This document shows positions 528 to 64,000 of a stretch of 64,000 nt of DNA, one piece after another. Source of the DNA: Piedraia hortae CBS 480.64 (lineage: Eukaryota); NCBI GenBank assembly GCA_010093745.1, contig MU005967.1:248001-312000 (forward strand). The letters run 5' to 3'. A program made the position numbers and the translations under genes. The notes beneath the pieces are model-generated. The model saw only the letters and a program-made list of their open reading frames with translations. It made no database searches and had not been told where the DNA came from. The stretch's first letter is position 1. Each line of letters opens with the position of its first letter.

Positions 528-1082
528 TCGCATGTACACACGATGAAAGTGTCTCGCGTTCGTAGCGTCTAGATGAAGCCATGCAGTACTCGATGATTAT
601 GACCGTGACGTCTCCCCAAAAATGCTATGTGATACATCTCCAGAATCGAACTCATACCTTTCAAAACGAAAACCGCCTCAAAGTGAAGGGAAAATAGATA
701 AAAAAAGGCTTAAAAGGTGGGTAATTTCCAAAGATTTAAATTGCGGCATAGTGCGGTGAGCCATGGGCACATCTGGTAAAAGGCAAGAAATGCGTTCTGT
801 TAGCCCAACCGCGCCGTCAGAACTAATCTAGGGAAGGGGGGTATTTATATTTTATTGTGGATATGCCGAAGATTTGCCGGACTGAATCGAACGGATGGGG
901 ACGACACAGACCTTTCCATCTATCGATGGAGTTCGTGTTGAGCCATGTCTAATTTTTAGAGCATGGGATGACGTGTGTGGACGGCTTGGTGGGTGGATCT
1001 CTATCCAAGCCCGATGCTCTCCACAGTGACATCACTCTATCGATCTTTTGCCTGGACTCACGAATACAGTACAGAGACTACA

Positions 1083-13528: not shown

Positions 13529-13753
13529 CATAGAATCGGTACATCTTCTCTGCATCTGGAAGGTTTTCGAAGGCAATTTCTGAGATCTTGTGCATCTTCT
13601 TTGCATCTGGAACGTTGGCGAAAGCAAAAAGCCAAGCTCTGGCTGTGAGTTTGGCGGGGGCTAGGCGGGGTTCGGGTTTGGGTGAAGCGGAATGTGCCAT
13701 TCGGGGCTAGCGGCACTCCACTTCATCCCGACACCACGATCAACATACATACC

Positions 13754-15499
13754 ATGGCGCAACAAGGCTCGAAAATGACACAGCCGCCTCTCATCAAACC
13801 CCACATGATTGATCAGCTGCCCCATATAGATGCTGGCCAAAAGGTTGCGTACAAAACTGCTCTGACTCAGGCGTGGGAACAGGAGGCCAATTCTGCAAAT
13901 GGCAGCCCAGAGTGGACGGAAGCACACAACAAAATCAAACAACTTACACAGAAGATCATGTATGATATCACGCAATTCAAGAATAAGCCGCGGCCGGGCT
14001 CCGGTGCTGGGCCACAGCAAACGCCGCAGTCACGACCGCCGAGTTCGGGGACCATGGCTGGTCCATCCACCGCCGCTCCGGCCGGCGGCGTGCAGGCTCA
14101 GGCTGTGCCTCCGCCGCAGAAACAGACACCAGCTGCCCAGCTGTCGGCGCAGGGCCAGGGTCAGCTCTCCCAGATCCAAATACCTCCCCATCTGCCGAGC
14201 GGGAAAAAGCAGAGGATCCAGTTAATGGCCGTCCAGGCCCTTTTAAAGATTGAGAACAGCAAGCGTGCACTGCAGCAGCTTCAGAGCACCGGCCAGGCGG
14301 CCAACCCGAATATTGCCATGCAGGTAGAAGCCACGAAGAAGTCAAAGGCCGAGGGGGAGGCAACGTGGAAGCAGCTTATGAGCGAATACGGACGTCCGCA
14401 AACGGGACAGCCACAACCGATGCAACGTCAAGCCAGCGGTGAAAGAAACGCGTCGGCCTCGCCACTACAGCAGGCGGCGTTTGTTCAGCAAGCTAGAGGT
14501 CTTCCACAGCAACAGGCACAACAACAACAACAGCAACAGCAACAACAACAACAACAACAGCAACAGCAACAACAACAACAGCAACAGCAACAGCAACAGC
14601 AACAACAACAACAACAACAACAACAGCAACAGCCGCAACACGCGTCACATCCGCCACACATGGGACAGATGCAACAGAACTTTGCACACGTCAACCAACA
14701 ACGACCACCGTCGTCACAACCGCCGCAGCAGGCCACAATGGCCTCGAACAACGTGCAGTCGGGGCAGCCTTTGCAGCGCCCACAGTCTCTAACTCAGCAG
14801 GCAGCCATGGCCCAGGCCGCCTCGGCCCATGTCCACCAGGGCCAGCAGCAGAAGGTTGGCCAGTTCGCGGGCCAGCAGCCTGGACAGCTGCCCATGTCGA
14901 ATGTGACTTTCAATCAGCCAGCCTCTGCCGTGCAGCCGCAGAGCGCGTTCCCACCCTCGTCTTTACCGGCCGGCGGTGCTTCTAATGCGCGTGCTCCGCT
15001 CACCAAGTCGATCATGATTGACCCTCGGCTGCAGCAGCCGGCTCCAGGTCCGGCGCCGCGTCCTTCCCTCGGCGTTACGGGCATGATGCATCAGCCGGGC
15101 CACGTGCGCCCGCCTCCCTTCAACCTTGAGGGCGAGGGCGATCGAGTGCTGAGCAAGCGCAAACTGGACGATCTGGTGCGCCAGGTTACCGGGGCCCAGG
15201 AAGGCGCTGGCCTCACGCCCGAAGTCGAGGATCTGGTTCTCCAGTACGCCGACGACTTTGTCGACGACGTCATCACCCAGGCCTGTCGCCTTGCTAAGCT
15301 CAAACCGAATCCGGTCCTCGATATCAAAGACGTGCAGCTCGTGCTCGAGCGCAACTACGGGATCCGTATCCCCGGCTACACCCTCGATGAAGTTCGTACC
15401 GTTAAGCGTTTCCAGCCTGCTCCTGGCTGGCAGAACAAGATGCAGGCTATTCAAACGGCAAAGACTCTGGGTGGAATCGCCAAGCAGGATAGTCAGTAG
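13754..15499 (+). CDS. TAF12: TFIID/SAGA subunit Taf12 (C-terminal histone fold)
   Basis: VLSKRKLDDLVRQV...ADDFVDDVITQACRLAKL...DVQLVLERNYGIRIPGY, with a Q-rich N-terminus. Confidence 0.93.
   Translation: MAQQGSKMTQPPLIKPHMIDQLPHIDAGQKVAYKTALTQAWEQEANSANGSPEWTEAHNKIKQLTQKIMYDITQFKNKPRPGSGAGPQQTPQSRPPSSGTMAGPSTAAPAGGVQAQAVPPPQKQTPAAQLSAQGQGQLSQIQIPPHLPSGKKQRIQLMAVQALLKIENSKRALQQLQSTGQAANPNIAMQVEATKKSKAEGEATWKQLMSEYGRPQTGQPQPMQRQASGERNASASPLQQAAFVQQARGLPQQQAQQQQQQQQQQQQQQQQQQQQQQQQQQQQQQQQQQQQQQPQHASHPPHMGQMQQNFAHVNQQRPPSSQPPQQATMASNNVQSGQPLQRPQSLTQQAAMAQAASAHVHQGQQQKVGQFAGQQPGQLPMSNVTFNQPASAVQPQSAFPPSSLPAGGASNARAPLTKSIMIDPRLQQPAPGPAPRPSLGVTGMMHQPGHVRPPPFNLEGEGDRVLSKRKLDDLVRQVTGAQEGAGLTPEVEDLVLQYADDFVDDVITQACRLAKLKPNPVLDIKDVQLVLERNYGIRIPGYTLDEVRTVKRFQPAPGWQNKMQAIQTAKTLGGIAKQDSQ
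14519..14632 (+). repeat. CAA/CAG trinucleotide repeat encoding 38 consecutive Gln in Taf12
   Basis: 114 nt of mixed CAA/CAG codons. Confidence 0.95.
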
Positions 15500-19225: not shown

Positions 19226-20032
19226 ATGATTCGTTTGCTGACCATACCGGCGTCGGCTTTACCCGCTCACCATGACCTTGCCTCGTCGAGTCAGCAGCCT
19301 GACGCCTTCGCTGAGTTGCTGTTGCATGAGGCAGAAGAGTTTATGAAGGATTTTGTTTCGAGCAAATTCCGCCTTGTGGGCAGTAGACAGTCACCGCCAG
19401 CTGATGCAACTGTCGAGCTGGGAACATACGAAAGGGGCGGAGATGGTGTTCCGCGTGAAATCTGGTTTGCTTGTACCAGTGTGCACGTAAATTCTGCTGC
19501 GTCAGGGACTGCCAGTTGGGATGAGTTCAACGCCGGCCTGCGTGAGAACCATAGTCGGCACGAGATGCAGTACACCCCCAATGTCACAGATGCCCACGAA
19601 GTGCTTGTCTGGGACTCCCAGCTGCTAAGTCAGAGCATTGGTGACTGGGATCAGATTGACATGCGTATCATGGAGATGATGCATCGCCTTCCACCTCCTC
19701 TCTCACGCCGTGTGTTTCCTGTGCTTGTGCTAACTGCCACACGTCGGGAGGGGAACGCTTTTCTGGTTGTCCAAATACCGGTAGACGTGAAGCATTTGCC
19801 ACAAGCCAAGCACACCAAGAGCCCAAACACTGTGACGGCCATGTATACATCTGTTGAACGAGGCGAGTTGATTGACAACGGTGCCCGCGTACGATGGCAG
19901 ATGGCCACGGCTAGTGATGCCAAAGGCAACTTGCCCATGAGCATTCAGAAAATGGGTGTTCCGGGTGCCATTGTAAAAGACGTAGGCCTATTCATTGACT
20001 GGGTTTCCAAGCAGAGGCATCAGATGCATTAG
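19226..20032 (+). CDS. Fungal START-like/DUF3074-type protein
   Basis: WFA..SVH...GTASWDEF..GLRENHS.HEMQYTP, YTSVE and WQMATASDAKGNLP..IQK.GVPGAIVKDV..FIDW. Confidence 0.75.
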   Translation: MIRLLTIPASALPAHHDLASSSQQPDAFAELLLHEAEEFMKDFVSSKFRLVGSRQSPPADATVELGTYERGGDGVPREIWFACTSVHVNSAASGTASWDEFNAGLRENHSRHEMQYTPNVTDAHEVLVWDSQLLSQSIGDWDQIDMRIMEMMHRLPPPLSRRVFPVLVLTATRREGNAFLVVQIPVDVKHLPQAKHTKSPNTVTAMYTSVERGELIDNGARVRWQMATASDAKGNLPMSIQKMGVPGAIVKDVGLFIDWVSKQRHQMH

Positions 20033-20048
20033 ATACGTGTTTTACATC

Positions 20049-23000
20049 CTAAGGCTCAACCTCGAATCTTAGTCGAACCCCCATGGCTGAGAGCTCAACG
20101 TCGAGATATCTCAGCACACCGGGGACAGCAACAAGCCTAACATCATCTCCCCCAGCCCTCTTTTCACCCTGTCGGTCCATCCAGCAATGGCTCGTTGAAT
20201 CTGTTATACTTGCCGAACGGCTGCACCGTCGACACCTCACATGACCTCCTTCCCGCCGCCGGTTAAACGGGCCCATGCTAGGCTGTACTGACAGAAAACT
20301 GCCACAGCTCCGGCACAGCCAGGCCTTGGTATAGTCGCTACAATTCATCAAGCGGTCCTGTAGCAAGAAAGCTGTGCCGTGAGCCAGTAGCGAGTCACGC
20401 TCCATCTCACCCACACGAATACCGCCTCCCTTTGATCTCCCCTTGATTGGCTGGCCGGTGAGAGGTGTCACAGGCCCAGTTGTGCGCACTTGGAATTTGT
20501 CGTTGACCATGTGCCTCAAACGTTGGTAGTACACCACGCCGATGAACACATCCGCTGCCAACTCTTCGCCCGTAATCCCCGAGTACATCGGCTCATTGCC
20601 GTAGTAGTTGTATCCCGCCGCTCTGAGCTGATGTCCAAAGTACTCAGCCGCCGTCTCCCCTGCCTTATCCTTGAATTTGAAAGGCGTGCAATCCTGAGCC
20701 AAGCCATGCAACGCTCCGGATTTGCCTGCCATCGACTCGATGAACATGCCGATCGTCATACGTGATGGAAACGCATGTGGGTTGATGATTATATCTGGCT
20801 GCATTCCACTCTCCGTGAACGGCATATCAATCGCTGGCCACTTTTGCGAACAAACTCCCTTTTGGCCGTGCCGAGATGAAAATTTGTCGCCAATGACAGG
20901 TTGACGGGGTATTCTGAAGCGAATGATGATTGTCTGACATGGCTCCTTGGTGCCGGTATCATTGCCCACAAGTCTGATATCGTCAATGTATGCCTCTTCA
21001 GAATCCTTGTACTGGTGAAGACGCGTCACACCATCGAGGTTCTCGTAGCCTGCTTGTGGAGTCCACGTTACTGAGTGCGATACGGCAATGATATCGCCCT
21101 CCTTCACTTTGGCACCTACTCGTGCCAGTCCATCATTGTCTATCATCTCCCTCCACCTGTCCTTGATTATGCCCCGAGGGGCAAAGCCGAATACTTGCGA
21201 GATTCCACCCCTTTTTCCTCCACGTCCCTTCTTCTCCTCGAACAAATCAATTTTCTTGGTCTTGTAGATCGTTCCATGGCCGAACCCTCGCTCATGTGAC
21301 GACTTGTTAATGATCATGGCGTCGTCCATGTCGTAGCCCGTATACGCCAACACAGCAACGACGGCATTTGTGCCATTGGGGAAATTATCCAAGCCATACT
21401 CATTGTAAAGAGGCGGTCGAACCACCGGTGTTTGTCCACATTGCAGCTTGTACAACTTGTTGTCTGTACGATACTGCAGTGCAGTGCCAGGCGTGCCCAT
21501 TGTTTGCTTTCCCATCTGACAGTTGCCGGTGTAAAATGGCTTCTGTGCTGCGTCTAGGATCTCGCCATTTATACCGTACTGGATTGTCCTTCGAGCCAAA
21601 AAATTGCCATTGGGTACTGTCAGGCAGTAGACAAAACCATCGTGGCGAGGGTTCTCGTATAGCTCTGGCTTTGGGGTACTCACAGCGAGTCCGCCATTAG
21701 CCAACGTAAATGATACAATCCATCCCGTAGATTTGGCTACGCCGTCCCCTTTGCTGTGTTTGACAGCAATCTTGACTCTCATGTCGGCCAGGTGTCCTAG
21801 CACAGACAAGTCGTGCACCAGTGGGATGGAGTTATCAATCACCCGGATAACTCCACCCGTAATGAGAGGAGTGGCCTGTTTCCCAGAATGCACGCCCTCC
21901 TTGAACAACTTGATCCTCTTCGCGCCCTTAGGTTCAGCAGTGTCCGATCGAACCTTGAAAGACACGTTTGACATGTTATCAGTAATTGCCTTCCCCGCGA
22001 TAATCGCTCGGGCTTGGCTTTGGGATAGTGAATACAGCCAAGGGTAATACATCCAGCGCCGAAGCTTCCACCAGTCGCTGGTTTCCCAGTCAGATGGCGC
22101 GGCCACAGCCGGCTCGTTCTCCGACTTTGTTAGTGCTTGGTAATGAGATGCTCGATAAGTACGGCGCATTGTATCATTTAGAGGATCAAAAGACTGCGGA
22201 CCACGCATCATGGGTAGGAAAAAGTTGTAGATGTCGCGGTTATTGATGGTCCAGGTCTGCTTCTCCCCGGGCCCTGACACGCACGCAGTTTCGACAACAA
22301 AATTGGAAATTCTCGCAGCCAAGCGCTTCAGAATGTCACCAATGCACGCCTGTACGGCGAGCAATCCAGCACATTGGATTATGATGTGCCAAGATTCTTG
22401 TCCCTGGGCATTAGTGGTGTGATTGATCCCGCCTTCACCCATTACCAGACCAACGAATCGACACCAGTCGAGATTGCACGCTTCGTCCTTGATAAAATCT
22501 GCGGGTAGCCAGGGGCAGTCTGTCCACAGGTACATGGCATTGCCGTTGTGTCCGACAGTAGGTATTTTGTGATTGATATGAGTGGTTGCCCCAGACTTAT
22601 GGCTCCATTGGTCTTGGTTCTTGCCAGCATAATTATTGGGTGCGACCAGCTGATTATCCAACATTTGCTGGGTTGTATACGCCCTATAAATCGTTGGTTG
22701 ATCTTTTGTGTTCAGATACCATCGATGGTTCTCGTCACAAACAGCATCCATACTGCCACTCTTGAGCCTGTACAGAGGTCCGTCATGTGGAAAGCGAGTT
22801 GTTCCTTCCACGACATTCCATTGCTGAGTGCCTGTTTGAAGGTTCATTGTCATCACCTGGTCTGTTGTACGTATCTTCGAGAGAGCTTTCCATCCAGTGT
22901 TGGTGAGCACCTCATGATCGACAGACAGGCATTGATACATGTTACGAGGTGACTGGTTGAAGTCCGGAAAAGGCGTCTGATTAGCAACGATTGACAGGAT

Positions 23001-25100
23001 ATTCGTAGGTGCGTATTCGACATGAGTGGTGTCGCCGGATGTAATTTCAGGATCTGTGCATGCAATCGACATGAATGGTTGTTCGAATGGACCCACGAGA
23101 TCTGTCTTGTCCAAGGGAAGATACTTTGCGGGCCTGATCATCCGCGCCGGCGACGAGAACATGTACACACCTGGATATTGGCCACCGTTTGATTCTGGAA
23201 TGTGACCAATCTCGAGGTCCAGCGGCACGCCATGCGTACCTTCTACCTTCCAGTAGCGCAGAGTGTCCGCAATCGTTTTTGCCATTAGCGGCCTGCAGAA
23301 TCCGAGGACTCTGCCATTAAGCTGCACTACCATGTTCTGATCCAACGTATTGGCAGACGTGCTGTCGACACCAAGTTGGGCAACTAGCTGAGGTATGGCG
23401 GATACATCCGATGATTCAGTTACAATCTTGCACTTGTGTGCCAGGTGGTTTAGCAAGCCACATGGTGAGCCGTCCGGCGTATGAACCGGACACAGAAAGC
23501 CCCAGCTTTCGGGCAAAAGCTTACGCACCGTAGTCGTCTTCAGCTGAGCAAAAAAGCTTCCTCGATGGACCATGCGAAAGTGACTGATGAAACGATAAAA
23601 GTTGATCTTCTCTGCCACAACAGTGAAGCCAGTCGTCTGCTGCAAGTCAAGACCACTAGGGCTCACCAGATTACCAGTGGCCAAGAAGTACTCCAAAGCT
23701 TGCCCAAGGTTCTCGTTCACTTTCGGCAGGACTCTGGACAGAAACGCCTTCTCAAACTGTGGGTGCGTCATCGGGACATAGTTGTTTGTTCGTTTCCAAT
23801 CGCGAAGGCTGCCGCCGATTGAGATGAGCCATTCTTCAAGCCGCTCCTTCATAATCATACCGTAGAGTGTACCTGGGAGGAGGATTTCCTGGCTTGAGAC
23901 TGCATCGGGGTTGTCGGTGGCACACTCGCCTTCCACCAAGGCATAAAGCTTCCGGATCATGAAGAGCAACATCTGATATTTGTCATTATCCTTCTTTTCC
24001 GTAATTTCATGATTCCCAAGGTGTGGAAGCACGACTTTTCGCAAGAACTCGGTTCCGGAATCATAATCGCTCATGTCTTCTGGCACGCCCAGCACAATGC
24101 GAAACTTCTCGCCAAGAAATGTGCGGGTTGCGGAGCGGGAATGAAGCTGGTAGTTCTTATACGTCCGCAATAGCAACTCCATTCGATCAGTTACAAATTG
24201 CTTGCGTTCAAGCCCTTCGCCGGTGGTGGATCCCATGATGCCTTCGTAGATCTCACGATCATTCGTGTCCCGCAGGGCCTTGATTATCATCAAAACAGGG
24301 ACGAGGTACTCGTTCTTCCTCCAAGAAAACCTGAAAGTGACGTTCCCATCGCTGAGGTAATGCAGCACGTTCGTTTGAGAAGTTTGGTCAGGACGCACCG
24401 ATCGTATCTGAACACCATACTTTGTGTAAGTTTTCCCACGCTTCTCAAACGAATTCCGCTCAATAGCCATGGGGAAGTTTCGTCGGTTGACTATCAGCAT
24501 TCGGATGAGCTTCTCTACGCCATTGACCACAAAGTAGCCCCCTAACTCTTCAGTCTCTTCTTTCCGGACCACAAGCTGCCTAGGCGACAGGCCCTGAAGA
24601 TGACATTTATTTGACCGGAGCATGATGGGCACATTACCCAACTCACGCTCAATCGTTTTCCAGGCCCCACCATTGACACTGTATTCAAGCCGGCATCTCC
24701 ACCGGCCTCGATAAGTCACAGCCCTCTCTCTGCACTCAGCAGGATAGACATTTCGGTTGTTTGATTCGACCATGTTGGAAGACGGAAGTACACTCTTTCC
24801 AAGCGAGACTTCTTTTATTCGCACCTGCAACCTGTTGTGTCGCCAATCCGCGTTCTCCTTGTATGGGTCGCCATCCAGAAAAGTCTTAGTTCCAATATCT
24901 TTGATTGAGTGCTCGATCTGGCCACCGGGTGCGAATATTGCATTGAACGAGTCTACATGTGGGCCAATGGCTTCCAATAATGCTGGATATGCGCTTTCAT
25001 TTGGGGGATTTCGGAAAAGTTTTTGACGGCGAGTAGTATCATATTCTGCCGTCCATTTGGGGTGATGAGGCGCTGAATTTTGCGGCCTAGATTGCACCAT
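20049..25100 (-). CDS. RPA135: RNA polymerase I second-largest subunit (Rpa135) precursor containing an intein; intronless
   Basis: Pol I-type motifs YPAECRER, TFRFSWRKNEYLVP, VRKLLPESWGFLCPVHTPDGSPCGLLNHL, YTGYDMDDAMIINKS, GDKFSSRHGQKG and GGIRVGEMERD. About 1680 aa, or about 1210 aa without the insert. Confidence 0.97.
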   Translation of the reverse strand: MVQSRPQNSAPHHPKWTAEYDTTRRQKLFRNPPNESAYPALLEAIGPHVDSFNAIFAPGGQIEHSIKDIGTKTFLDGDPYKENADWRHNRLQVRIKEVSLGKSVLPSSNMVESNNRNVYPAECRERAVTYRGRWRCRLEYSVNGGAWKTIERELGNVPIMLRSNKCHLQGLSPRQLVVRKEETEELGGYFVVNGVEKLIRMLIVNRRNFPMAIERNSFEKRGKTYTKYGVQIRSVRPDQTSQTNVLHYLSDGNVTFRFSWRKNEYLVPVLMIIKALRDTNDREIYEGIMGSTTGEGLERKQFVTDRMELLLRTYKNYQLHSRSATRTFLGEKFRIVLGVPEDMSDYDSGTEFLRKVVLPHLGNHEITEKKDNDKYQMLLFMIRKLYALVEGECATDNPDAVSSQEILLPGTLYGMIMKERLEEWLISIGGSLRDWKRTNNYVPMTHPQFEKAFLSRVLPKVNENLGQALEYFLATGNLVSPSGLDLQQTTGFTVVAEKINFYRFISHFRMVHRGSFFAQLKTTTVRKLLPESWGFLCPVHTPDGSPCGLLNHLAHKCKIVTESSDVSAIPQLVAQLGVDSTSANTLDQNMVVQLNGRVLGFCRPLMAKTIADTLRYWKVEGTHGVPLDLEIGHIPESNGGQYPGVYMFSSPARMIRPAKYLPLDKTDLVGPFEQPFMSIACTDPEITSGDTTHVEYAPTNILSIVANQTPFPDFNQSPRNMYQCLSVDHEVLTNTGWKALSKIRTTDQVMTMNLQTGTQQWNVVEGTTRFPHDGPLYRLKSGSMDAVCDENHRWYLNTKDQPTIYRAYTTQQMLDNQLVAPNNYAGKNQDQWSHKSGATTHINHKIPTVGHNGNAMYLWTDCPWLPADFIKDEACNLDWCRFVGLVMGEGGINHTTNAQGQESWHIIIQCAGLLAVQACIGDILKRLAARISNFVVETACVSGPGEKQTWTINNRDIYNFFLPMMRGPQSFDPLNDTMRRTYRASHYQALTKSENEPAVAAPSDWETSDWWKLRRWMYYPWLYSLSQSQARAIIAGKAITDNMSNVSFKVRSDTAEPKGAKRIKLFKEGVHSGKQATPLITGGVIRVIDNSIPLVHDLSVLGHLADMRVKIAVKHSKGDGVAKSTGWIVSFTLANGGLAVSTPKPELYENPRHDGFVYCLTVPNGNFLARRTIQYGINGEILDAAQKPFYTGNCQMGKQTMGTPGTALQYRTDNKLYKLQCGQTPVVRPPLYNEYGLDNFPNGTNAVVAVLAYTGYDMDDAMIINKSSHERGFGHGTIYKTKKIDLFEEKKGRGGKRGGISQVFGFAPRGIIKDRWREMIDNDGLARVGAKVKEGDIIAVSHSVTWTPQAGYENLDGVTRLHQYKDSEEAYIDDIRLVGNDTGTKEPCQTIIIRFRIPRQPVIGDKFSSRHGQKGVCSQKWPAIDMPFTESGMQPDIIINPHAFPSRMTIGMFIESMAGKSGALHGLAQDCTPFKFKDKAGETAAEYFGHQLRAAGYNYYGNEPMYSGITGEELAADVFIGVVYYQRLRHMVNDKFQVRTTGPVTPLTGQPIKGRSKGGGIRVGEMERDSLLAHGTAFLLQDRLMNCSDYTKAWLCRSCGSFLSVQPSMGPFNRRREGGHVRCRRCSRSASITDSTSHCWMDRQGEKRAGGDDVRLVAVPGVLRYLDVELSAMGVRLRFEVEP
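21522..22931 (-). mobile_element. Intein, 470 aa, with a LAGLIDADG-type homing endonuclease region
   Basis: In-frame 1410-nt insert splitting NQSPRNMYQ|CQMGKQ. Begins CLSVDHEVLTNTGWK (block A), has CDENHRW (block B), FVGLVMGEG (block C) and VYCLTVPNGNFLAR (block F), and ends YTGN before extein Cys+1. Confidence 0.95.
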
Positions 25101-25245
25101 GTTGTGCAAGAATAACTATCGTTATTCTGGTCCGGACAGAATTTTGGGGGAAAAAGTTGAGTGACAGCGGGACAACCCGACACTAGCCAGAACAAGAAGT
25201 GGGCAACATCCATCTGATGACCTTGATGGTCTTCACTCCAACACA

Positions 25246-26051
25246 ATGGGTATCTTTCAGCGTTTCTATGACTGGCTACTCAACTTGTTCTGGTTTGTAG
25301 AAAGAAATACAGCCAACGAATTGACTAATATGCATGGCAACAGGGCGACCGAGCTGGACGTAACTATTATCGGATTACAAAATGCCGGAAAGACATCGCT
25401 CGTCAGAGTTCTTGCGGTATGCAAGTCGGGAAATGTTGGTCATGGCTCATTTCTTTGTACTGACATGTTTTTGTAGGGAGGCGAGTTCACAATTGAGTAT
25501 ACAAGGCCTTGAGGTTGCTAGTACACCTCGCACTGACGATTCCACAGCTCCACGCCAACAGTGGGATTCAACATGAAGCGGGTGCACAAAGGCCATGTGA
25601 CGTTGAAATGGTAAGTCGAGTGATTCCATGATAATCAATTGCTTAGCGAACGGAAGCTGGGACCTTGGTGGACAGCCTCGATTTCGGCCAATGTGGGATC
25701 GATATTGTCGTGGAGCAAGCGCAATTGTGTATGTTGGAATCGGTTGGCCGGATTCCATTGCTTACCGCCATGGTCAGATTCGTCGTCGACTCAACAGATC
25801 AACCCGCATTGCCGGTAGCAAAGGAAGAGTTACACATGCTTGTGAATAAGCCTGCTGTCGAAAGAATACCGTTGCTTGTGTTGGGCAACAAATCAGATCT
25901 ACCGAACCACTTAACGGTAGATGAACTGATAGAGGAGCTGGATCTCAAAGCCGTGACCAACCGCGAACTGAGCTGCTACGGTATTAGTGCAAAGGAAGAA
26001 ACGAATCTGGATGCCGTGATGCAGTGGCTGATTGCACGGGGGCAAAAGTAG
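25246..26051 (+). CDS. ARL8: Arf-like GTPase Arl8, 6 exons
   Basis: Spliced product contains [47 protein letters not shown] and [15 protein letters not shown]. Five short GT-AG introns. Confidence 0.92.
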
Positions 26052-47643: not shown

Positions 47644-49645
47644 CTACCCTTTCTTCATCACCTGATCAACCATATCATGCGAAGCGACGGTCAACCCCAT
47701 CCTCATCCGCGATAGGGCCGCAGCAATCTCTATCGACCTAGCCGCAACCAATTTCCCATCGGTGATGTTGGTCGGCAACGGACGGGTAGTGTCTCTAAAG
47801 ACACCTTCCAATGCCATGTTCATTGGCATGGGACCCTGGTCGCATGTCAGCCGCTCGATTGTATCGATGGCCTCGCTGATCATTCGCGATTGACCAGTTT
47901 CTACAAGCTGGTCAAAAGTGCGAAGGTCTATGCCTGATTCTTCCTCTGCAGGATTCTCTACAGGATTCCTGCTGATTGGTTTGATAGTAATGAAGTTCTT
48001 GCGCGTCGGATATGGATTACTCCAGCCGGTGAGATCGGCTTTGATGTTGCGTTGGAAAATGGGTCCATATACAGACGACTCTGTCACTGTCACGGGATAT
48101 TTGGCATTAAGAGACTTGGTGGCGGAATTCAGGCACTTGGGCACGTATGATTCCATTGCGATGACGTTGTCGGCAACATTGAGCCAGTCTCCGAGGCCAC
48201 CGATGACAATCACCGTGCTGACGCCATGTTCATTGTATAAAGCCCTGACTTTCTCAATCAGAGGCGTGATTGGCTCGTGCTGGAGCAAATGACGCATACG
48301 CTGGTCACGCACCAGCAGATTCGTGGCCGATGAATCCTCATCGATAAGTAGTGTTCGACTTACCACTTCAAGGGCTTCCTGAATGCTGGCAGCCATCGAA
48401 GTAGAGCCGCTAGCATCGTCAGTGAAGAACTTTTTAGTATCCTTGCTACCGGGAAGATTGTTGATATAAGGGCTGATGTCGACTCCGCGAACACTCCGCC
48501 CGTCCTCAACTCGGATCTTAGCTGCGGTTGGATCAGTAACGATCAACTCACGCCCATCTCCTGGTACATGGTTGTAAACACCCAATTCGATTGCCTGCAA
48601 CAGTGTCGATTTACCATGGAAGCCCCCGCCCGTCAACATGGTAACGCCTCGAGGGATGCCCATGCCAGTGATTTTGGTACCGTCATCCATGACGAAAGAG
48701 ATTTCCAGCTCTTCGGGAGAGACGAACGGCACAACATGCTTGGACTTCATTGGCGCAGCATTTGCCCCAGACGCTCTGGGCAAGATTGATCCATTAGCAA
48801 TGAACGTCACGAACCCAGCATCAACAACACGCTGGCGCAAAGCCGACTGTGTTTCCATGGACGCAACATGTTCATGAAGCTTGACAGGGTTGATATTCTC
48901 ATGAACAACCGAACGCTGGACCAGGTCTACCAGGTCGACGGCGAGAATTTGTTTCGCCACGCCCCCCAATATACGACGCCCCGCAGCTGGTAGAGCGATG
49001 GTGAATCGTATCTCCAGGTCGCCGTCATCGTTGACAATAACGCTCGAGCGTGGCAAGATCTCTTGACCTGGCGCATTGATGTTGAATGCACCCCCTTTGG
49101 GACCACCCCAGCCGTGCCCACCATGCCCACCTTTGACGCCCTTATCCATGTGCTTGGACCTAATTATTTCGGCACATTTACGGGTGATGTAGTCACACAA
49201 TGCTATCTGACTAATGGGCGATTGCTTGTAATGCTCCGACAGTTTGGTATTGGCCCATGGGATGAAGATCCGAGCCCTTGAAGGGGCGGCGTACGGATCT
49301 GTCTGAATGTAATCAAAACACAGAGCAAACCCCGGGGGACCCTCATTCTCAAAGCGTTTCTTTAGTCGCTTATACTCGGGGTACTGTCCATTGTCGATGT
49401 TGTCTAGAGTCTTTTCAAGGACACTCCACGACTGCGGTTGCTTCTTTTTAGGACTGGTGTCCTCCTCTTCGGGACTTCCAATAGTAATATCATGAGCCGG
49501 CCTATATGGTCTATGACCACCGCGGCCCCGAGCCCCACCACGACCCCCACCGCGACCTGTGGGGTACGGATACCCAGCTTTTCGATCTAGCCAACTCATT
49601 CAGCAATGCGACGTAACTTTGCAGAGGCTGAAACTTACCCGGCAT
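47644..49645 (-). CDS. Stand-alone ABC-class P-loop ATPase (bacterial 'predicted ATPase of the ABC class'/MRB1590-like) with an RGG N-terminus; micro-exon 49639-49645, intron 49587-49638
   Basis: IQTDPYAAPSR, FIANGSILPRASG, Walker A TGGGFHGKSTLL, GDGRE, EDGR, ASGSTSMAA, Walker B LLIDEDSSATN and EPITP. Confidence 0.82.
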
Positions 49646-56003: not shown

Positions 56004-59000
56004 CTACTCATCCTCATCGTCGGCGTACTTGTTCGAGAACTTAACCAGTGATGTGAACCCTTGTTCGCACTCGCCGTCAACCCAGCTCCTAGGCACAAGG
56101 CTAAACTTCCCATCTCGAGCCCGAATGAGCCTCGTCCGTTCTCCCGCTCCGTCACCGGTAGTACCCTCTTCGGATATAGAACTACCCCTCCTCTCCCTCT
56201 GCTCCAGCACGTCCACGTCAATCGTATGCAGCGCCACGATTCTGTAAACTTTAATGGTCTTCTTCTGCCCGTGTCGTCTTACCCGGCCAATCGTTTGCGC
56301 CATGGCCGCCTTGTAGTGATACGCCGTTGGCTTGAGCAAGGGCGAGAGGAAGATTACGTGGTTCGCATTCTGCAGGTTCAGGCCCGCTGCTGTTTCGCTG
56401 CTTGCGTTGAGTATCAAAACTGTTGTTTGGGGGTTGCGGTAGAAGGTCTGCACCGCCGTGTCAACGTTTGTGGTGTCAGTGATTGATACTGCGCCTATGC
56501 CGTGAGATTGGAGTGTGGTGGTGAGGTGGTGAAGGAGGGCTTTGCCTTGTTTGGACTTGGGATCGTATTGGAGGAATAAGATTGCTTGTTCGTCTACTGA
56601 ACGTATTTGGCGAAGAAGAGTTACCACTGCCTCGGTCTTTGCGTTGGTTGGGCTTGGAGATGGCGGTAGTGTGCGGCCGAAGAGGAGGTTGTAGTGATGC
56701 ATGGTGCTGCTGCATTGACGGGCTGGACATTTGTAGCCGCGCCCTGCATCAATCTTTTTCCAGCATGTTTCGCAGACGACGTGGCCACACACTGCTGATA
56801 TGGCCATATCGCCCCTCTTAGCAGGGCAGTGTTCCTTATCACATTGGAGCCTGGACTGGAACTCTTGCAATCTCGCAAAGAACCGCAAAGACCGCTGGGC
56901 AGTTACCAATTGACTTGCAAGGCTAGTCACCACTGTGGTGGGGAGATGCAGGGCAGAGCGTCCTGTCCGGGCTTCTTCGTTCCCGTCAGAGTCCATGTTG
57001 ATGTCCTTGTCGTCTAATAAATCTCGCACCTTGCCAATCACTTGCTCATCGCCGAGGGCAAGGCCATTAACAGCTGTCCTCTCCCAAGCCAACAATCTGG
57101 AATGATCGTCAGAATTACGTGCTCGGCTAATGGCAGCGCGCAGGTTCTGAGTTAGTCGATCAACGTCTCTCTGTCGAAGGGATACCTGAGAATCCAGCAC
57201 CCCTTCAGTGAACGATGCTGCATTCAGTAAAGCTTCTTCTGCCGATGCGAGTTTATCCAATGCTTCATTGACGAGCTTCTCACGTTCGAGGTTGGTCGCC
57301 CTTTTACCCTTCCTCAGCTGCATCTCATGGGATATGAGGTGTTGAGATAGCTCCATGTACAATGCACGGTGAGCCAGGCTGAGATGGATTGGAAAAAGCC
57401 TGTCTTCCACGCTGAGCTCTTCAAAATCCATGGCATTCTGCCGAGCAAAAGTATCCAGGAACTGCTGGCAGAGCTGGTACATCCGGCAATGCAGCTTCGT
57501 TGATGGCATCTTCTGCCGGTTAAAATCAAATTTTTCAAAGTCGGTCATGTCCTTCATATGCTGACGTCGATTGGAGACTCGCATGCCACCCCTCATATCG
57601 CGACTGAATCGAAGAGGAAGGCCAATAAGACCAGCCATTTGCGAGACGTTGTACATGTCGCTGAGCGCAGGCGTACCGCAGAGACCCCATCGTTTGTCTG
57701 CGTGGAGACTTTTGATAGCTGCGTATTCTTTGGCATTGTATTCGTGGAACTCGTCCACGACCAGACGATTGAAATGGAACATCTCAAACAACGCACAATC
57801 CGCCCTTGTTGTATTGGACGCCTTGGGCTTGGACTTGTTCGTGCGCTTTTCGTTCTTTTTCGTATCTGCTTGGCTCCCACGGTAGCGTTTGGATGGAACA
57901 AAGGCTTTAAAGATGTCGTTAGCCACCTGCTGCTGGTATTTGTTCTCAAGGAACTTTTGGAACTCCTTGGTACCCTTCTGTTCCAGCATCTCTAGATGTT
58001 CTGGAATGCGCAAAGTAGCATGATTTAGCCATTCTGAATACGCCCGTCCACTGACAGTTGCAGGACCAGGCATAGCTGCAAACACTGCCAAGCGTTCTGC
58101 ATATGGCGGCGACGAGAAGATGGCTCGGTTCACGACAATCACTTTCGCTTCTGCAAAATCTTGAATTCTGTACTTGTGCAGGTCTGGGACTCTATTGACG
58201 GAGATGACTCCATCATTCCAGCCAAGCTTGTCCCTGATCTCACCTAGCCATTGCTCGATAAGTGATGCAGGACACACAACCAGAGTCGCGGCAGATGTCA
58301 TCAGTCCTCCCTGCTTGCTTCCCATAGAAATCGACTCATGCTGTTGCAGGGAGATTAGTGCTAGAGTTGTAACTGTCTTACCAAAGCCAGGATGATCAGC
58401 ACAGATGCCGCCTTTAGTCGACTTCAGGCCACTGGCTCGAACTTCTGCGCGCCAGCCAAGAGCAGGTAGACTTGCCTCTTCTGACTCTTCCATGGGGAAC
58501 TGAACGCCCGCACCCGACTCTTGCTTCACCATCCAGTTCAAGCATCGAAGCTGACAGGGAAACAAGTTCACTTTCAGGGGCGAGGGGCCAGTGTATTTCA
58601 TCTCCGTAGTTGGAAGCAGATGAAAAACTTTTAACGAAGGTATGGGCACCACCGGACTTGTATCGATCATCCATTTGACCGTCACGTCTTGAGCGGACGT
58701 GAGACGAGCAATTGCCCGGTGGGCGAGAGATGTTACGTTGATTCCAAGCTCCAGCAACTTCAAACCCTCTCCGTAATCACTGGTCTTCACGATGAACGGA
58801 GGAGGAAGCGACTTCATCGCTCTTTCGTAAGTTGCTGCTTGGCTCGATTCTTCGTAAGGGGAGATGGACAATCCGTCTTCACCAAACGACCACCGCAACG
58901 TCGGTCTCTGTGGTGCACAATTTGGACATATCACTTCCGAGTCAGCCACGGTCAGAGTCTCCCACTTCTCACTCGATATCTGCGTCCGCATAGCCTCAAA

Positions 59001-62000
59001 TGCCCACACATGTTCACGGAGAAAACGAGCATTGCTGGCCTGGTTTCTTTGTTGGTTGAGAGCCGGTGACATTGGCCCGCTAAAACCACTGAGGAGATGA
59101 TTGGTGTTGCATGATGAGAAGTGCGGTGCAACAAGAGGAGTATGCAACTGAACTTCCTCCTTGGTTGCCTCGAGTGTGATACCTTGGAATACCCCAGTCA
59201 AAAAATGATCAACTTGCAAGGTAGTGGAGGGAGATTCGGGCTTGTGCCAAGGCCTCCAAGATGGGTTAACGCGCGCAATGATGGGACGCACCTCATCATA
59301 CTCGACATAATCTTTGCAGTGTGTAAATACGAATGCGTCTTCTTTGACCGGCCCTGTCGACGTTGGATCCAAGAAAAGATAGATCGGTAGCCCACCTTCC
59401 TCGTCGGACTCCCTCACATACAAACTATTGCAGGCCATACTACAATCCGGCAAATGACGATAGAGTCCATCGATCCGGCCCTCGAGCAGGTGGCCATGGG
59501 CCCCCGTAACCTCAACTTCCAAGCGACCCGGTTGTGAAGGATATTTGGGGTCTGGGATTTCCATACGAGCCCACCACGATGGAACTTCTGGCCCGTTGGA
59601 TCTGATTCTGGCTTCAATGACACTGGCCGGCACAATCCTCCACATCCACTTCACACGGAGGAGAGAGTCAGTCACCTTGGCTTTTGCAATAGGCTCTCTC
59701 AGCCACTCTCGCAGTAAGCTGTTGGCTGGGAGTTTTGCATTCGGCAGCGCGTAGAGCCTCCATTCAGTGCCATTCTTTTCGAAAACGCACTCCAAGCGAG
59801 CATGATGCGAAAGGAATACCGCCGTCCAGCAATGCATCCGACGGATGCCAGAAAACGAATAGATGCCACCCAACGCCTGCTGCACCGCACTGGAATAGTC
59901 ATCAACCTGAACACATTTCGTCTTTGACTCAGGAGCAAGCTCACCCACGTCCCAACGCCCACAAAATACGAGGCGAAGCGGTAGACTGGACTTCAACTGC
60001 TCTTCGAAAATATGCGGTAGAAGACGACCGTTTTCTATCTCGTAAGGAGAATACGCATGATCCGGATTGCCACCGCAGGCTACATGAGTAGTGTGCTGGC
60101 AATGAATGCATATCTGAACTGGCCTTATATCAAACCCCCTGCCGCCCTCGCAATGGCAAACTCGTAAAGTGCGACGAGCCGTCTCAAGCAACTTGGCGTG
60201 ATTGTAGTCAATATCGCCCAGTATTTGTGTTACCGAATGAGTATCGCATTGCTCCATTTCTGATTTCTCGATCATTGAAACGTCCATGGCAACAGACGAA
60301 GCGACTGGATCGATAAGAGCATGTCCTGTAATCAAAGCCGACAAGATCGCACAGCCAACTACAGTTGTGGACATGGCATTCCCAGCCAGGTCCTGCTGCT
60401 CTCGCTCAGTCTCAGTGGTGAAAGAGATCTTGTCCAAAGGAATACCCTGCAACATAAGCGCTTCTTCAGCCGTTAGGGCTCTAGTAAGACCGGATACGAA
60501 TGGTTGTCCATCAGGCGTTATGCAGCCACTGATGCCAAACTCACCGCCGTCGACAAAACGATCCACATTTTGTGAGAGATCCCAGATGCGGTGCTTGTAA
60601 CGCACATCATACCCATCCTCGCCTTTCTTGCCACCACCTTTGGCCTTTCGCAGCACACTGATATCGAGCATATCCAAGACCCGCTCTGGCTGCTTGCGAA
60701 ACCACGCGGCGCAGCCTGTATCGGGAGGCGTTATCGTACCGGATTCAGACCACCTTGTAAAAGGTCGACCTTCCCCAAGTCTACCATCGGCCCGTTGCTT
60801 AAGATGCCGCTGGGCAGACTGCGTCCAGTCGACCTCACGAAGGGGCTCGTCTTCACGCAGTTGGTTACGTACCGTAATCTGGTCACTTGGAATGAGAAAA
60901 GACGACACAGGGCTGCTAGCAAATCGTCGAAATTCAGCCATGAGGTTCTGGAATTTCTTGCCAAGAGTTCCGTTTGCTTCGTTCTCCTTGTCCCGGGATA
61001 CGTCAAAGCAGGCTAGATAGCCCCGCTGGCGCGTCTGTGGGATGTAGTAGTCTTTTGTAGTTACCAGCACGCCTCCGCATTTGTAGCCGATTTTCTCGTA
61101 GCAATCTATCATGGCACTCCAGTTGGCCTTTTCGACATTTTCAAACAGTATGATGGCGGGACGAAACTTACGGCAGTACGCAAAAGCGCCATACCACGTT
61201 TGCCCCGACTCGCCGCCATCCTGTATGCCCTTGCGCTTGTTGTTGAGCGCTGAATAATCCACACAAGAAGTTCCGGCGATGAGGATGTCCACATCAGTTG
61301 GGATGTCGGCCTTTGATCCATACGCAGTGGTGGCCATCGGACAGGTATCTTCAACGACTCTTGGGAACTCTGTGATATCACGGAATATCACCGGCGGTGC
61401 AAAGTTGCGTTCAATGTATGCCTGCTTGTATGGTTCAATTTCTGCCGAGAAAACGTGTTGGACCTCGATTGTCCCAAAGCCAAGCTCTTTCAGAGATTCA
61501 CTGATCATTTGCAGCGCCAGAAGAGGACTCTCAGTACCAGAGCACATGGTGGCCGCCCTCAGTTTGCTTCCACGGAAACGGGTCGTCACGTCCAAGATGC
61601 CCTTGTTGACAGCCTTTTGCGTTATGTCCATGAATATCTCATTGATGTCAGAAAGGGGAGGTAAGCTCATATCGATCCCCTTTGGCTGGTCTTTTGTGCG
61701 TGTCAACAGCCTCTTCAAAGCATTATCTGCAGCTATCTTCCTGCGTGGAGCACGCTTTTGTGGTGTTTCGTTTTCAGACTGGTAAATATCGAATGCTAAA
61801 GCTGGTGCTGGAGCTACAAGCGGCTCAATGGCAGTGCCATGCGAGGGCGATGAGGAGCTCAGTTCATACTTACCCCCGTCATTCACGACTACTTGTTTCC
61901 TGAGAGCCACGCGCGCAGGAACATGACTAGGCTTTTCTTTCTGAAGCTCGGTGGCATCATTCTCAGGAGGGACATTCTCGTCGCCAGGAGCTTCAGAAGA

Positions 62001-62105
62001 GTTGTCGGTTGTATCTTGTTGATCATAACGAGCTTGCTTTGGATAGGGGGCGTCCGTCTGTCCACTCTCTCGTTGGCGTTTTTGAGTATTGTACCCAGAA
62101 AACAT
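56004..62105 (-). CDS. DNMT5: DNMT5-type C5 cytosine methyltransferase fused to a RING-containing SNF2 ATPase; intronless, 2033 aa
   Basis: MTase motifs ATMCSGTESP, FSAEI, AGTSCVDYS, FENV, PQTRQRGY and DLAGNAM. SNF2 motifs GGICADHPGFGKT, TLVVCP, VVDEFH, GTP, AAGLNL and QTIGRVRRHGQ, with a Cys/His RING-like insert. Confidence 0.9.
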   Translation of the reverse strand: MFSGYNTQKRQRESGQTDAPYPKQARYDQQDTTDNSSEAPGDENVPPENDATELQKEKPSHVPARVALRKQVVVNDGGKYELSSSSPSHGTAIEPLVAPAPALAFDIYQSENETPQKRAPRRKIAADNALKRLLTRTKDQPKGIDMSLPPLSDINEIFMDITQKAVNKGILDVTTRFRGSKLRAATMCSGTESPLLALQMISESLKELGFGTIEVQHVFSAEIEPYKQAYIERNFAPPVIFRDITEFPRVVEDTCPMATTAYGSKADIPTDVDILIAGTSCVDYSALNNKRKGIQDGGESGQTWYGAFAYCRKFRPAIILFENVEKANWSAMIDCYEKIGYKCGGVLVTTKDYYIPQTRQRGYLACFDVSRDKENEANGTLGKKFQNLMAEFRRFASSPVSSFLIPSDQITVRNQLREDEPLREVDWTQSAQRHLKQRADGRLGEGRPFTRWSESGTITPPDTGCAAWFRKQPERVLDMLDISVLRKAKGGGKKGEDGYDVRYKHRIWDLSQNVDRFVDGGEFGISGCITPDGQPFVSGLTRALTAEEALMLQGIPLDKISFTTETEREQQDLAGNAMSTTVVGCAILSALITGHALIDPVASSVAMDVSMIEKSEMEQCDTHSVTQILGDIDYNHAKLLETARRTLRVCHCEGGRGFDIRPVQICIHCQHTTHVACGGNPDHAYSPYEIENGRLLPHIFEEQLKSSLPLRLVFCGRWDVGELAPESKTKCVQVDDYSSAVQQALGGIYSFSGIRRMHCWTAVFLSHHARLECVFEKNGTEWRLYALPNAKLPANSLLREWLREPIAKAKVTDSLLRVKWMWRIVPASVIEARIRSNGPEVPSWWARMEIPDPKYPSQPGRLEVEVTGAHGHLLEGRIDGLYRHLPDCSMACNSLYVRESDEEGGLPIYLFLDPTSTGPVKEDAFVFTHCKDYVEYDEVRPIIARVNPSWRPWHKPESPSTTLQVDHFLTGVFQGITLEATKEEVQLHTPLVAPHFSSCNTNHLLSGFSGPMSPALNQQRNQASNARFLREHVWAFEAMRTQISSEKWETLTVADSEVICPNCAPQRPTLRWSFGEDGLSISPYEESSQAATYERAMKSLPPPFIVKTSDYGEGLKLLELGINVTSLAHRAIARLTSAQDVTVKWMIDTSPVVPIPSLKVFHLLPTTEMKYTGPSPLKVNLFPCQLRCLNWMVKQESGAGVQFPMEESEEASLPALGWRAEVRASGLKSTKGGICADHPGFGKTVTTLALISLQQHESISMGSKQGGLMTSAATLVVCPASLIEQWLGEIRDKLGWNDGVISVNRVPDLHKYRIQDFAEAKVIVVNRAIFSSPPYAERLAVFAAMPGPATVSGRAYSEWLNHATLRIPEHLEMLEQKGTKEFQKFLENKYQQQVANDIFKAFVPSKRYRGSQADTKKNEKRTNKSKPKASNTTRADCALFEMFHFNRLVVDEFHEYNAKEYAAIKSLHADKRWGLCGTPALSDMYNVSQMAGLIGLPLRFSRDMRGGMRVSNRRQHMKDMTDFEKFDFNRQKMPSTKLHCRMYQLCQQFLDTFARQNAMDFEELSVEDRLFPIHLSLAHRALYMELSQHLISHEMQLRKGKRATNLEREKLVNEALDKLASAEEALLNAASFTEGVLDSQVSLRQRDVDRLTQNLRAAISRARNSDDHSRLLAWERTAVNGLALGDEQVIGKVRDLLDDKDINMDSDGNEEARTGRSALHLPTTVVTSLASQLVTAQRSLRFFARLQEFQSRLQCDKEHCPAKRGDMAISAVCGHVVCETCWKKIDAGRGYKCPARQCSSTMHHYNLLFGRTLPPSPSPTNAKTEAVVTLLRQIRSVDEQAILFLQYDPKSKQGKALLHHLTTTLQSHGIGAVSITDTTNVDTAVQTFYRNPQTTVLILNASSETAAGLNLQNANHVIFLSPLLKPTAYHYKAAMAQTIGRVRRHGQKKTIKVYRIVALHTIDVDVLEQRERRGSSISEEGTTGDGAGERTRLIRARDGKFSLVPRSWVDGECEQGFTSLVKFSNKYADDEDE

Positions 62106-64000
62106 TGGAAAAGAACGCTAGTCGTGAGATTGGAGGGAGGAAGGTTAGACAAGGTAAGGTAAAGAGTAGAAGGGATGTGCGAATGATTTGCGGGTAGAGT
62201 GCAAGGTATGGTATATAGTTCGGTGCAATGCGTTGTTGGGTTCTCCTAAGGCGAGTAACACGGGGTGACAACAAGAGCTCCATTGAGCACACGTGTTGTT
62301 TATTCACTTCGCGGGCCCTGTGCACTGTTTTGTGAATGTCCTGATAGTGTTGCCATTGCAACGATCCATAGCTTCCCCTTGGAGTTCACCCAGTGGTCCA
62401 AAGACAAAACATTGATGTGAACAATGCCCTGCAGTCCAGTTAATTTGGAATTGGGACCAACAATCGGTTCGCGTAAAAGTATAAACTGTCAGCATCTACA
62501 CCCTCCCGAGCGCTTCCTAGGGAGCAAGAGAAGATGCTGTCAGTAAGAGAGTTCTATGTGCTCCTTCACGTCATGTGTAAAGTTGTCTTGGATTATCGTC
62601 CTATATGCTCTCACGTCAATGGTCAAACAAAGATTCCAGGGCTTTGGCGCCGATCTAATTGAAGCCTTATCATGTTCACTCGTCTTTACCGGAGGAAGTA
62701 ACAATGATTGGGATATAGAGTCGAACATGAATCTAGCGGACACTGAATACAGCGGATTACCCTTTGCAGCAGACTGTCAGCACCTCTAATCTGGTCTTCA
62801 CGCACCTGTAAGCACCTAGCATCGGCATACCCGCCTGATGTATTCAGATTCGACCGTACATTCTTTAGCTTATGGTATTAAGCTTGTCACAAACTTCAAC
62901 TCCAACAGAGGATGATCTCGATTGAAATCACTACATAGTTCACGTCATGTCCATAGTGGACGCCGTAGCCATTATCCTGATGCTTATTGCGGTTTCATGA
63001 CATTAACAGCCTGAAGATGGCGTGCAAAGGCCGCCCGTTGCTCTGCCAGGATTGTTTGGTTGTTGAACAATCATTGCGGGTTAATTTTCCGACGTGAAGT
63101 CGGAGAAATGACGTCACGGCACAGGCTGTGACTCGTGAAGCACCAAAATGTTCGTAAAATTCAGGCGGGAACATGGCAGGTTGTGATCCGAACGAAAAAC
63201 GATCGCTCCCCTGTGTGTTTCACTCAGCTCCCTTGGTACTCAAATACAATCTTGCCACTATTTGATCTTTTCCAACATTGCCAATACGAGGTAAGAAACG
63301 AGGCTGGAACAAGACTCTCATTGCCTCAATAATGCTGCAGCTTCTGATGCTATAGATTCCTGGTATTAGCGACAGGAATATTAGGTAGTATTTTGAGCAG
63401 CAGAAATTGGTACCGGCCAATGTATCGACGACTACCATCATTAGCATTACCTAATATAGATTCTTTCAGTCCTCGCCAACTCCCCCCTTTAGTTGGGATG
63501 AATCAGTAGAAATCTTCCCCACTGCGTGCACATCCCTGCACAGTTTTGATCACCACTTCAAACGCAAATAGCACCACACACAACCACTCTACATAGATAT
63601 GTACTATATTTTTCGAAAGCGCTTGCTCTAAGGTTTCATGTGGTACCATTGTTAACGGTTAGCGATTCCATCGGAAGCGGGAATGTTGCGATTTAATTTT
63701 GTAGAACACTCGCGGTAAAGGGAATTGAATACAGTCTTCTAAAAAGTACAAGAGTATTGGGAGCCAGCCCATACTTACTACGACGCCCGAAATCCAGAAA
63801 ACCTGTTTCTGGGAGACTTAAGCTTGTTTGTGTGCGACGCATGCATGACGTCATTCATCAACAAACAATTTATGCCAAAATGCGGTCTCGCACACATGAC
63901 GGCCGTACGCCCATCTCTGGGCCAAGGAGTATGAGGCACCGACCGTTACAATCTTGAAGATCTTGGACTTCCTGTTCACCTTATTTGAGGTGCGCGCGAC

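Follow-up and report, generated by a model that had tools for sequence, protein, structure and literature searches.

An RPA2-a intein with a probably decayed endonuclease domain in Piedraia hortae, and the apparent mobility of its family among RNA polymerase genes

Results

The RPA2 gene and its surroundings

We analyzed a 64,000-nt stretch of the Piedraia hortae CBS 480.64 genome, referred to below as the window. The RPA2 (Rpa135) gene occupies positions 20049..25100 on the minus strand and forms a single uninterrupted ORF of 1683 aa, with its ATG at 25100 and its stop codon at 20049-20051. The precursor contains the Rpa2-specific Pfam domain PF06883 (E 1e-25), aligns with other Rpa2 proteins, and corresponds to the public P. 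hortae CBS 480.64 gene model P0003, to which it is identical over 1049 + 608 residues, that is, everywhere except for a 26-aa gap in the model.

The conserved Rpa2 motif composed of NQSPRNMYQ and CQMGKQ is interrupted between these two halves by a 1410-nt in-frame insert, window:21522-22931 on the minus strand. The insert encodes 470 stop-free residues (CLSVDHEV…KPFYTGN) running from Cys1 to Gly-Asn470, and is followed by Cys+1; a plus-strand reading of the same interval contains many stops and was rejected. It separates an N-extein of 723 aa ending in …NQSPRNMYQ (22932..25100, minus strand) from a C-extein of 490 aa starting with the Cys+1 of CQMGKQ (20052..21521, minus strand). The Rpa2 proteins of S. 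pombe and S. cerevisiae with solved structures align with the precursor as two pieces joined exactly at the Cys of CQMGKQ (query 20-724 + 1194-1681 versus 7aoc_B 3-704 + 704-1173). Once the insert is removed, the protein has 1213 aa, compared to ~1200-1240 aa in full-length intein-free relatives. The preliminary description of this DNA, made from its letters, had placed an insert of this length, with these ends and within this motif, at 21522..22931 and had expected a normal-length Rpa135 with Cys+1 after its removal; translation and the alignment to solved Rpa2 agree with it on every point, the coordinates being exact and the strand minus.

Most orthologs lack the insert, as 101 of the 120 best Rpa2 matches possess an empty site with CQM[GS]KQ. 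The insertion site lies in the hybrid-binding region, close to the active centre of Pol I, and corresponds in the alignment to solved Rpa2 chains to the junction between residues 770 and 771 of yeast Rpb2; the residues just upstream contact the incoming NTP. Given this position, the function of Pol I probably depends on splicing of the insert.

The gene is tightly packed between its neighbors. Only 16 nt separate the end of a DUF3074 gene (19229-20032, plus strand) from the RPA2 stop. On the other side, a gene for a small GTPase, presumably ARL8-like, starts ∼146 nt from the RPA2 start (from ∼25247 onward, plus strand; intron 25293-25343). Other features of the window include a U5 snRNA (707-818, minus strand, 52.7 bits), a TAF12-like ORF with a run of ∼40 glutamines (13649-15499, plus strand), an ABC-class ATPase with an MRB1590-type C-terminal domain (47644-49599, minus strand), and a 2037-aa ORF that joins a C-5 DNA methylase to a SNF2 helicase (56004-62117, minus strand), which we take to be DNMT5-like.

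Identification of the insert as an intein

The residues expected of an intein are present in the 470-aa insert (21522..22931, minus strand): Cys1, the block B His69 at position B10, the terminal Asn470, and Cys+1. In all 33 of 33 relatives C1, H69, W71, C436, T468, G469 and N470 are invariant. The long matches of the insert (37 of 37) are all second-largest RNA polymerase subunits that carry it at the homologous site, three of them being partial. The N-terminal Hint part (∼aa 1-135, 22527..22931, minus strand; boundary approximate) contains Cys1 and the block B residues His69 and Trp71, with Asp in place of the usual Thr at B7, and the C-terminal Hint part (aa 417-470, 21522..21683, minus strand) contains Cys436 of block F and Thr468-Gly469-Asn470 of block G; positions B12, F4 and G5 were set by motif spacing.

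Profile searches of the precursor gave Pfam hits that fell short of the cut-off (Intein_splicing, E 0.019; PT-HINT, E 0.13) and no match to any intein model in NCBIfam, thus the intein call rests on motifs, homology and fold. An AlphaFold model of the insert, built with a 40-row alignment, has a pLDDT of 86 and is predicted to combine a Hint domain with a LAGLIDADG domain. In structure comparisons this model matches known inteins at Z 13-22. The highest-scoring ones contain an endonuclease and match along the full length of the model: TliVMA (Z 22.5, rmsd 4.7, 317 aligned residues) and, at Z 18.5-18.8, PI-SceI. When solved structures were searched by profile, all of the 60 matches listed were polymerases. 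No RIP-like or GC anomaly was found in the insert (GC 0.50, TpA/ApT 0.61).

Taken with the retention of the insert in RNA (see below) and its placement in a highly conserved motif, the Hint and LAGLIDADG fold upholds the proposal that an essential gene is interrupted by an intein, with splicing as a prediction. The profile side of this proposal did not hold at cut-off and the structural side did, the predicted Hint fold matching inteins. The 1683-aa precursor would thus be spliced to a 1213-aa Rpa2. Our main reading, to which we assign a probability of roughly 0.85, is that the insert is an intein that splices in cis and carries a homing-endonuclease domain, at site RPA2-a; this figure includes the proposed splicing mechanism and history.

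Known alleles and related systems

The Rpa2 of Parastagonospora nodorum (P0009) carries a 455-aa intein at an identical junction (NQSPRNMYQ, then CLSADHEV…FTGN, then CQMGKQ), and the Piedraia intein is 61% identical to it by BLAST and 66% over aligned columns. Judged by sequence, the Piedraia Rpa2 intein is an allele of Pno RPA2 at site RPA2-a, and a new copy of an element known at this site since 2006. In the portion of the original paper available, Pno RPA2 is described as having 455 aa, Cys1, Cys+1, a Gly-Asn end, and a degenerate LAGLIDADG endonuclease (Goodwin, Butler, Poulter 2006, PMC1635734). The two inteins thus share the host subunit, the junction, these terminal residues and a degenerate LAGLIDADG (PMC1635734, same portion), but differ in length (470 aa versus 455 aa), in a basic loop that Piedraia retains and Pno is without, in their motif 2 lesions, and in the order of the host. 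The statement that an RPA2 intein was already reported in P. nodorum is therefore correct, with the same junction and a Gly-Asn end, whereas the suggestion of a possibly unreported allele holds in part: no Piedraia allele was found in print, but a close allele was known at the same site.

Rpa2 inteins of Baudoinia and Pyrenochaeta, as well as inteins of the same family or site in Rpb2 of Pseudocercospora musae and Tilletia and in Rpc2 of Melanopsichium, were tabulated by Green, Novikova, Belfort 2018 (PMC5784728, available in part). In the accessible parts of that work, Piedraia is absent from the intein supplements, and the main text contains neither RPA2, RPB2 nor RPC2 and does not discuss movement among them (PMC5784728). 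Piedraia and 'intein' were not found together in the literature searched, a search to which InBase and most subscription journals were external. Inteins that pass between paralogs were reportedly studied in Anaeramoeba by Gallot-Lavallée et al. Such interparalogue transfer was first described in 2023, in this protist with dozens of inteins, and the fungal case is not covered in the text available (PMC10710043). Fungal paralog homing was not found in papers since 2019 within the same search, again with InBase and most subscription journals outside its scope. The concept of interparalogue transfer and some of the sequences are thus already known, and a fungal analysis was not found in the literature searched, part of which was available only in excerpt.

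Like the Piedraia intein, the fungal VMA1/PI-SceI and PRP8 inteins combine a Hint with a LAGLIDADG domain in an essential gene. However, identity to PI-SceI in the structural alignment is only ∼10-12%, and the RPA2-a family differs from the euascomycete PRP8 inteins, for which the partial sources give saturated silent sites and no horizontal transfer.

Splicing route

We consider a class 1 route likely for this intein. In this mechanism Cys1 would make the N-S shift with the help of His69, Cys+1 would take over the N-extein, and Asn470 would cyclize without a penultimate His, with Cys436 assisting in place of the usual F4 Asp. The competing possibility, which we hold to be distinctly less probable though a real contender, is that splicing follows the class 3 route or both routes, with Cys436 (F4) as the residue that attacks at the N-terminal junction and with no need for Cys1. 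Class 3 (WCT) inteins include MP-Be DnaB and AceL NrdHF, and in the parts of these sources available they share Trp B12, Cys F4, Thr G5 and a close Hint fold with the Piedraia intein (PMC2807308, PMC7891396, PMC5222942). All 33 of 33 relatives have the full signature (W71, C436, T468), most of them have a residue other than Thr at B7 (N 21, D 7, T 5), and the best structural match to the Hint part taken by itself is the class 3 AceL NrdHF intein (Z 19.2, rmsd 2.1, 147 aligned residues), other mini-inteins reaching Z 15.7 or less.

The Catera Gp206 intein starts with Ser1. According to the excerpts available, Catera Gp206 is a class 3 intein, and the mechanism of WCT inteins retaining Cys1 or Ser1 was left open by Tori 2010. 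Nevertheless, Cys1 is just as invariant as the WCT residues (33 of 33), therefore the 2010 definition of class 3, in which the N-terminal Cys/Ser nucleophile is absent, does not describe the present intein. In the same partial sources, Cys+1 is rare among class 3 inteins, and Cys F4 is also found in some class 1 inteins, which are polyphyletic. By a crude parse of distant matches, 178 of the 181 N-terminal ones start with Cys and 41 of these also have Trp B12, so that the family looks like a broad Cys1 lineage; by the same parse, many distant relatives combine Cys1 with Cys F4, which likewise favors class 1. The Piedraia intein is further unlike class 3 inteins in being eukaryotic and nuclear, as well as in retaining Cys1 and having Cys+1. 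It can be speculated, tentatively, that a splicing domain equipped with both class 1 and class 3 nucleophiles is a natural intermediate between the two mechanisms.

The distant relatives P0050-P0189 are Cys1 inteins that end in Thr-Gly-Asn and often have Cys F4; their hosts include phage portal proteins among others. Together they seem to make up a broad lineage, one that Pfam recognizes poorly.

The endonuclease domain

The LAGLIDADG homing-endonuclease domain (aa 149-416, 21684..22487, minus strand) is probably decayed. Its two-motif fold sits within the Hint domain, as delimited by I-DmoI, which aligns over model residues 149-416 (Z 12.8, rmsd 3.5, 167 aligned residues). Both catalytic motifs depart from the family consensus. 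Motif 1, FVGLVMGEG (22431..22457, minus strand), has Glu166 where 18 of 19 relatives have Asp, and motif 2, IAGKAITDN versus IKG[IM]A[AV]ADG (21975..22001, minus strand), has Lys314 at a position that is hydrophobic in 19 of 19 relatives and Asn319 at a position that is Gly in 19 of 19.

By counting changes at near-invariant columns among 19 Dothideomycete-clade relatives, we found 28 of 117 endonuclease columns (24%) changed in the Piedraia intein, compared to 1-15 in the relatives; the counts for the Piedraia Hint domain and C-extein were 8 of 103 and 15 of 266. The endonuclease thus differs from the Hint domain (p 0.002) and from the C-extein (p 7e-7), and the latter two do not differ from each other (p 0.47). 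The long branch of the intein (0.39-0.48) was rejected as a sign of decay in favor of these per-domain counts, since the Piedraia extein branch is likewise long (0.27) and the effect is in part one of lineage.

An endonuclease that is still active in Piedraia appears improbable. Its frame and fold are intact, acidic residues occupy both catalytic positions (Glu166, Asp318), and dN/dS in the domain is ∼0.3 versus L002 and L003, two of the Rpa2 alleles compared below. However, a pairwise dN/dS averages over the time that preceded decay, Lys314 and Asn319 disrupt positions that are hydrophobic or Gly in all 19 relatives, and a 6-aa deletion near residue 397 adds to the loss of 24% of conserved positions. 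Under the decay scenario, an ancestor with an active endonuclease would have entered the Piedraia lineage by horizontal transfer and homing, and the endonuclease would have decayed afterwards, whereas selection would have kept the splicing domain intact, as Pol I is indispensable.

A separate lesion was seen in the intein of the L001 allele, in which a 16-nt deletion relative to L002, ∼610 nt from the start, shifts the frame within the intein of an essential gene. This deletion is probably an assembly error.

Distribution and divergence across hosts

The 120 best of 617 Rpa2 matches include 13 intein carriers, 101 empty sites and 6 irregular rows; the rows are 90% clusters rather than species, and the irregular ones were left out of the presence count. 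On the host tree of these 120 matches, the 13 carriers are scattered and need 13 changes, no fewer than shuffled labels do (mean 12.5).

For DNA comparisons we used three further alleles (L001-L003), which are all Rpa2 alleles with Pleosporales-type exteins and include no close relatives of Piedraia; L004-L006 were left out, as their intein protein is the same as that of L003. In all 6 of 6 pairs formed by the window and L001-L003, fourfold sites have diverged less in the intein than in the exteins. In the pairs that involve the window, this divergence amounts to 0.48-0.56 for the intein versus 0.74-0.75 for the host gene (e.g. 68 of 143 sites versus 225 of 302 against L002), and among L001-L003 it is 0.12-0.20 versus 0.57-0.60 (e.g. 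22 of 187 versus 213 of 364 for L001 and L002). The inteins closest to each other are those of L001 and L002, and the closest hosts are those of L001 and L003. The first 15 codons on either side of the junction show no drop in silent-site divergence relative to the other silent sites (11 of 12 in L001 versus L002, small counts), thus any co-conversion of the flanks is very short.

These data suggest that the RPA2-a intein family moves horizontally between Dothideomycete species, as it appears to do. A Pleosporales donor was considered for the Piedraia allele and did not receive firm support, as the intein pairs with that of P. nodorum at only 72/97. Nor did we find a viral vector: none of 253 pattern matches in viral contigs encodes a relative, in that collection and at that sensitivity. 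Under the label Elasticomyces elasticus, both a full (P0017) and several empty (P0194, P0317-P0324) Rpa2 sequences with near-identical exteins are present.

Movement between Pol I, II and III paralogs

By host protein, the 37 long matches comprise 22 Rpa2, 9 Rpb2 and 6 Rpc2, all with the insert at the homologous site; three partial ones (P0010, P0024 and P0026) were left out of the trees. The comparison of intein and extein phylogenies that had been proposed earlier gave discordant trees. The extein tree consists of three clean clades, one per paralog, and no such clades are found in the intein tree, where a single Dothideomycete clade with 99/99 support unites 15 Rpa2, 4 Rpc2 and 2 Rpb2 inteins, and the Rpb2 intein of Recurvomyces groups with Rpc2 inteins at 100/99. 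One clade per paralog is rejected for the inteins by the AU test (p 0.0009, 0.0015 and 0.00007, under LG+G4, a simpler model, with some long branches). In line with the tree, the window intein is 57% identical to an Rpc2 intein and 52% to an Rpb2 intein, compared to 44% and 36% for the Rpa2 inteins of Coemansia and Tilletia. The occurrence of Rpa2, Rpb2 and Rpc2 inteins in one clade and at a homologous site points to jumps between paralogs, and the family may sometimes move between the homologous sites of Rpa2, Rpb2 and Rpc2, in which NQSPRNxYQ precedes C or S.

In Tilletia spp. (P0029, P0032-P0035, P0037, P0038) the site is occupied in both Rpa2 and Rpb2, by two groups of inteins that are distantly related.

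A purely vertical history, with an ancient intein in Dothideomycetes, many losses, and no recent horizontal or inter-paralog movement, is strongly disfavored. Inteins at the same site in distant fungi and amoebozoa (Coemansia, Tilletia, Dictyostelium) do indicate that the occupation of this site is old, and the euascomycete PRP8 inteins have been judged vertical in the sources available in part. Such a history is nonetheless at odds with the 5-9-fold lower silent-site divergence of the inteins relative to the host gene among L001-L003, and with inteins from different host clades that are 87% alike when their C-exteins are 76% alike. Conversely, between the sister hosts P0008 and P0017 the exteins are 94% alike and the inteins 64%. 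Finally, identity in Rpa2/Rpc2 and Rpc2/Rpb2 pairs reaches 72-76% for the inteins, compared to 39-45% for their exteins.

Transcripts and the annotated intron

The earlier proposal would have been overturned by removal of the insert from RNA, and the transcript evidence shows the insert kept. A single 4572-nt contig of run X2 (20537-25102) spans the whole intein with 0 differences and 0 joints; X2, a single run listed only as 'RNA?', is represented by contigs, which drop rare isoforms. It holds spliced RNA, since an X2 contig skips a 51-nt GT-AG intron of the neighboring gene. With the insert retained in RNA, we infer that its removal must occur by protein splicing.

The 26 aa missing from the public model P0003 correspond to a 78-nt GT…AG stretch (21876..21953, minus strand) that was treated as an intron. 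Protein alignment, RNA contigs and the structural model identify it as coding, and the loop that it encodes (aa 327-352) is disordered and bears a basic KRIK motif; the annotated intron is unsupported, being kept in the RNA contigs, in which a rare isoform would be hidden. That RNA processing takes out the insert or some portion of it, or that the locus is an assembly artefact, has next to no probability: P0003 does take 78 nt within the intein as a GT-AG intron, but the sequence is unchanged and without joints in two runs from two studies (one of which may be the source of the window itself), the translated 78-nt stretch can be aligned to the proteins of relatives, and the insert ends are TGC…AAC rather than GT…AG.

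The KRIK motif in the loop is possibly a nuclear localization signal. Similar basic motifs recur in many relatives of the intein and may serve to bring the endonuclease into the nucleus after excision. In the predicted proteins P0040 and P0043 a 'VS…' run directly follows the final Gly-Asn of the intein, and in P0026 it occurs in mid-intein; judged from these protein sequences, it is what a spliceosomal intron starting there would give.

Discussion

Taken alone, the Piedraia locus extends a site that has been known since 2006 to one more species and sets right a public gene model; the mobility of the family matters more than this single locus. On balance, we lean slightly towards a broader interpretation in which a nuclear intein family continues to spread, crossing between Dothideomycete orders and between the genes of Pol I, II and III via sites where NQSPRNxYQ precedes C or S, with almost no co-conversion of the flanks. 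The Piedraia copy would then be an endpoint of this family that has decayed, with a splicing domain that is perhaps an intermediate between class 1 and class 3.

Homing is thought to need allelic flanks. If the broader interpretation is true, one endonuclease would read three anciently diverged paralogs, and homing repair would proceed with very little flanking homology. Inteins of filamentous ascomycetes such as PRP8 have been judged vertically inherited in the partly available literature; for the present family, the silent-site and tree evidence points to horizontal passage from one fungal order to another and to transfers between the paralogs of Pol I, II and III. Natural test material is at hand in the alleles with intact motifs (L002/P0004), in the full and empty alleles under the Elasticomyces elasticus label, and in the decayed Piedraia copy, and the combination of Cys1 with WCT chemistry makes the question of class 1 versus class 3 splicing testable.
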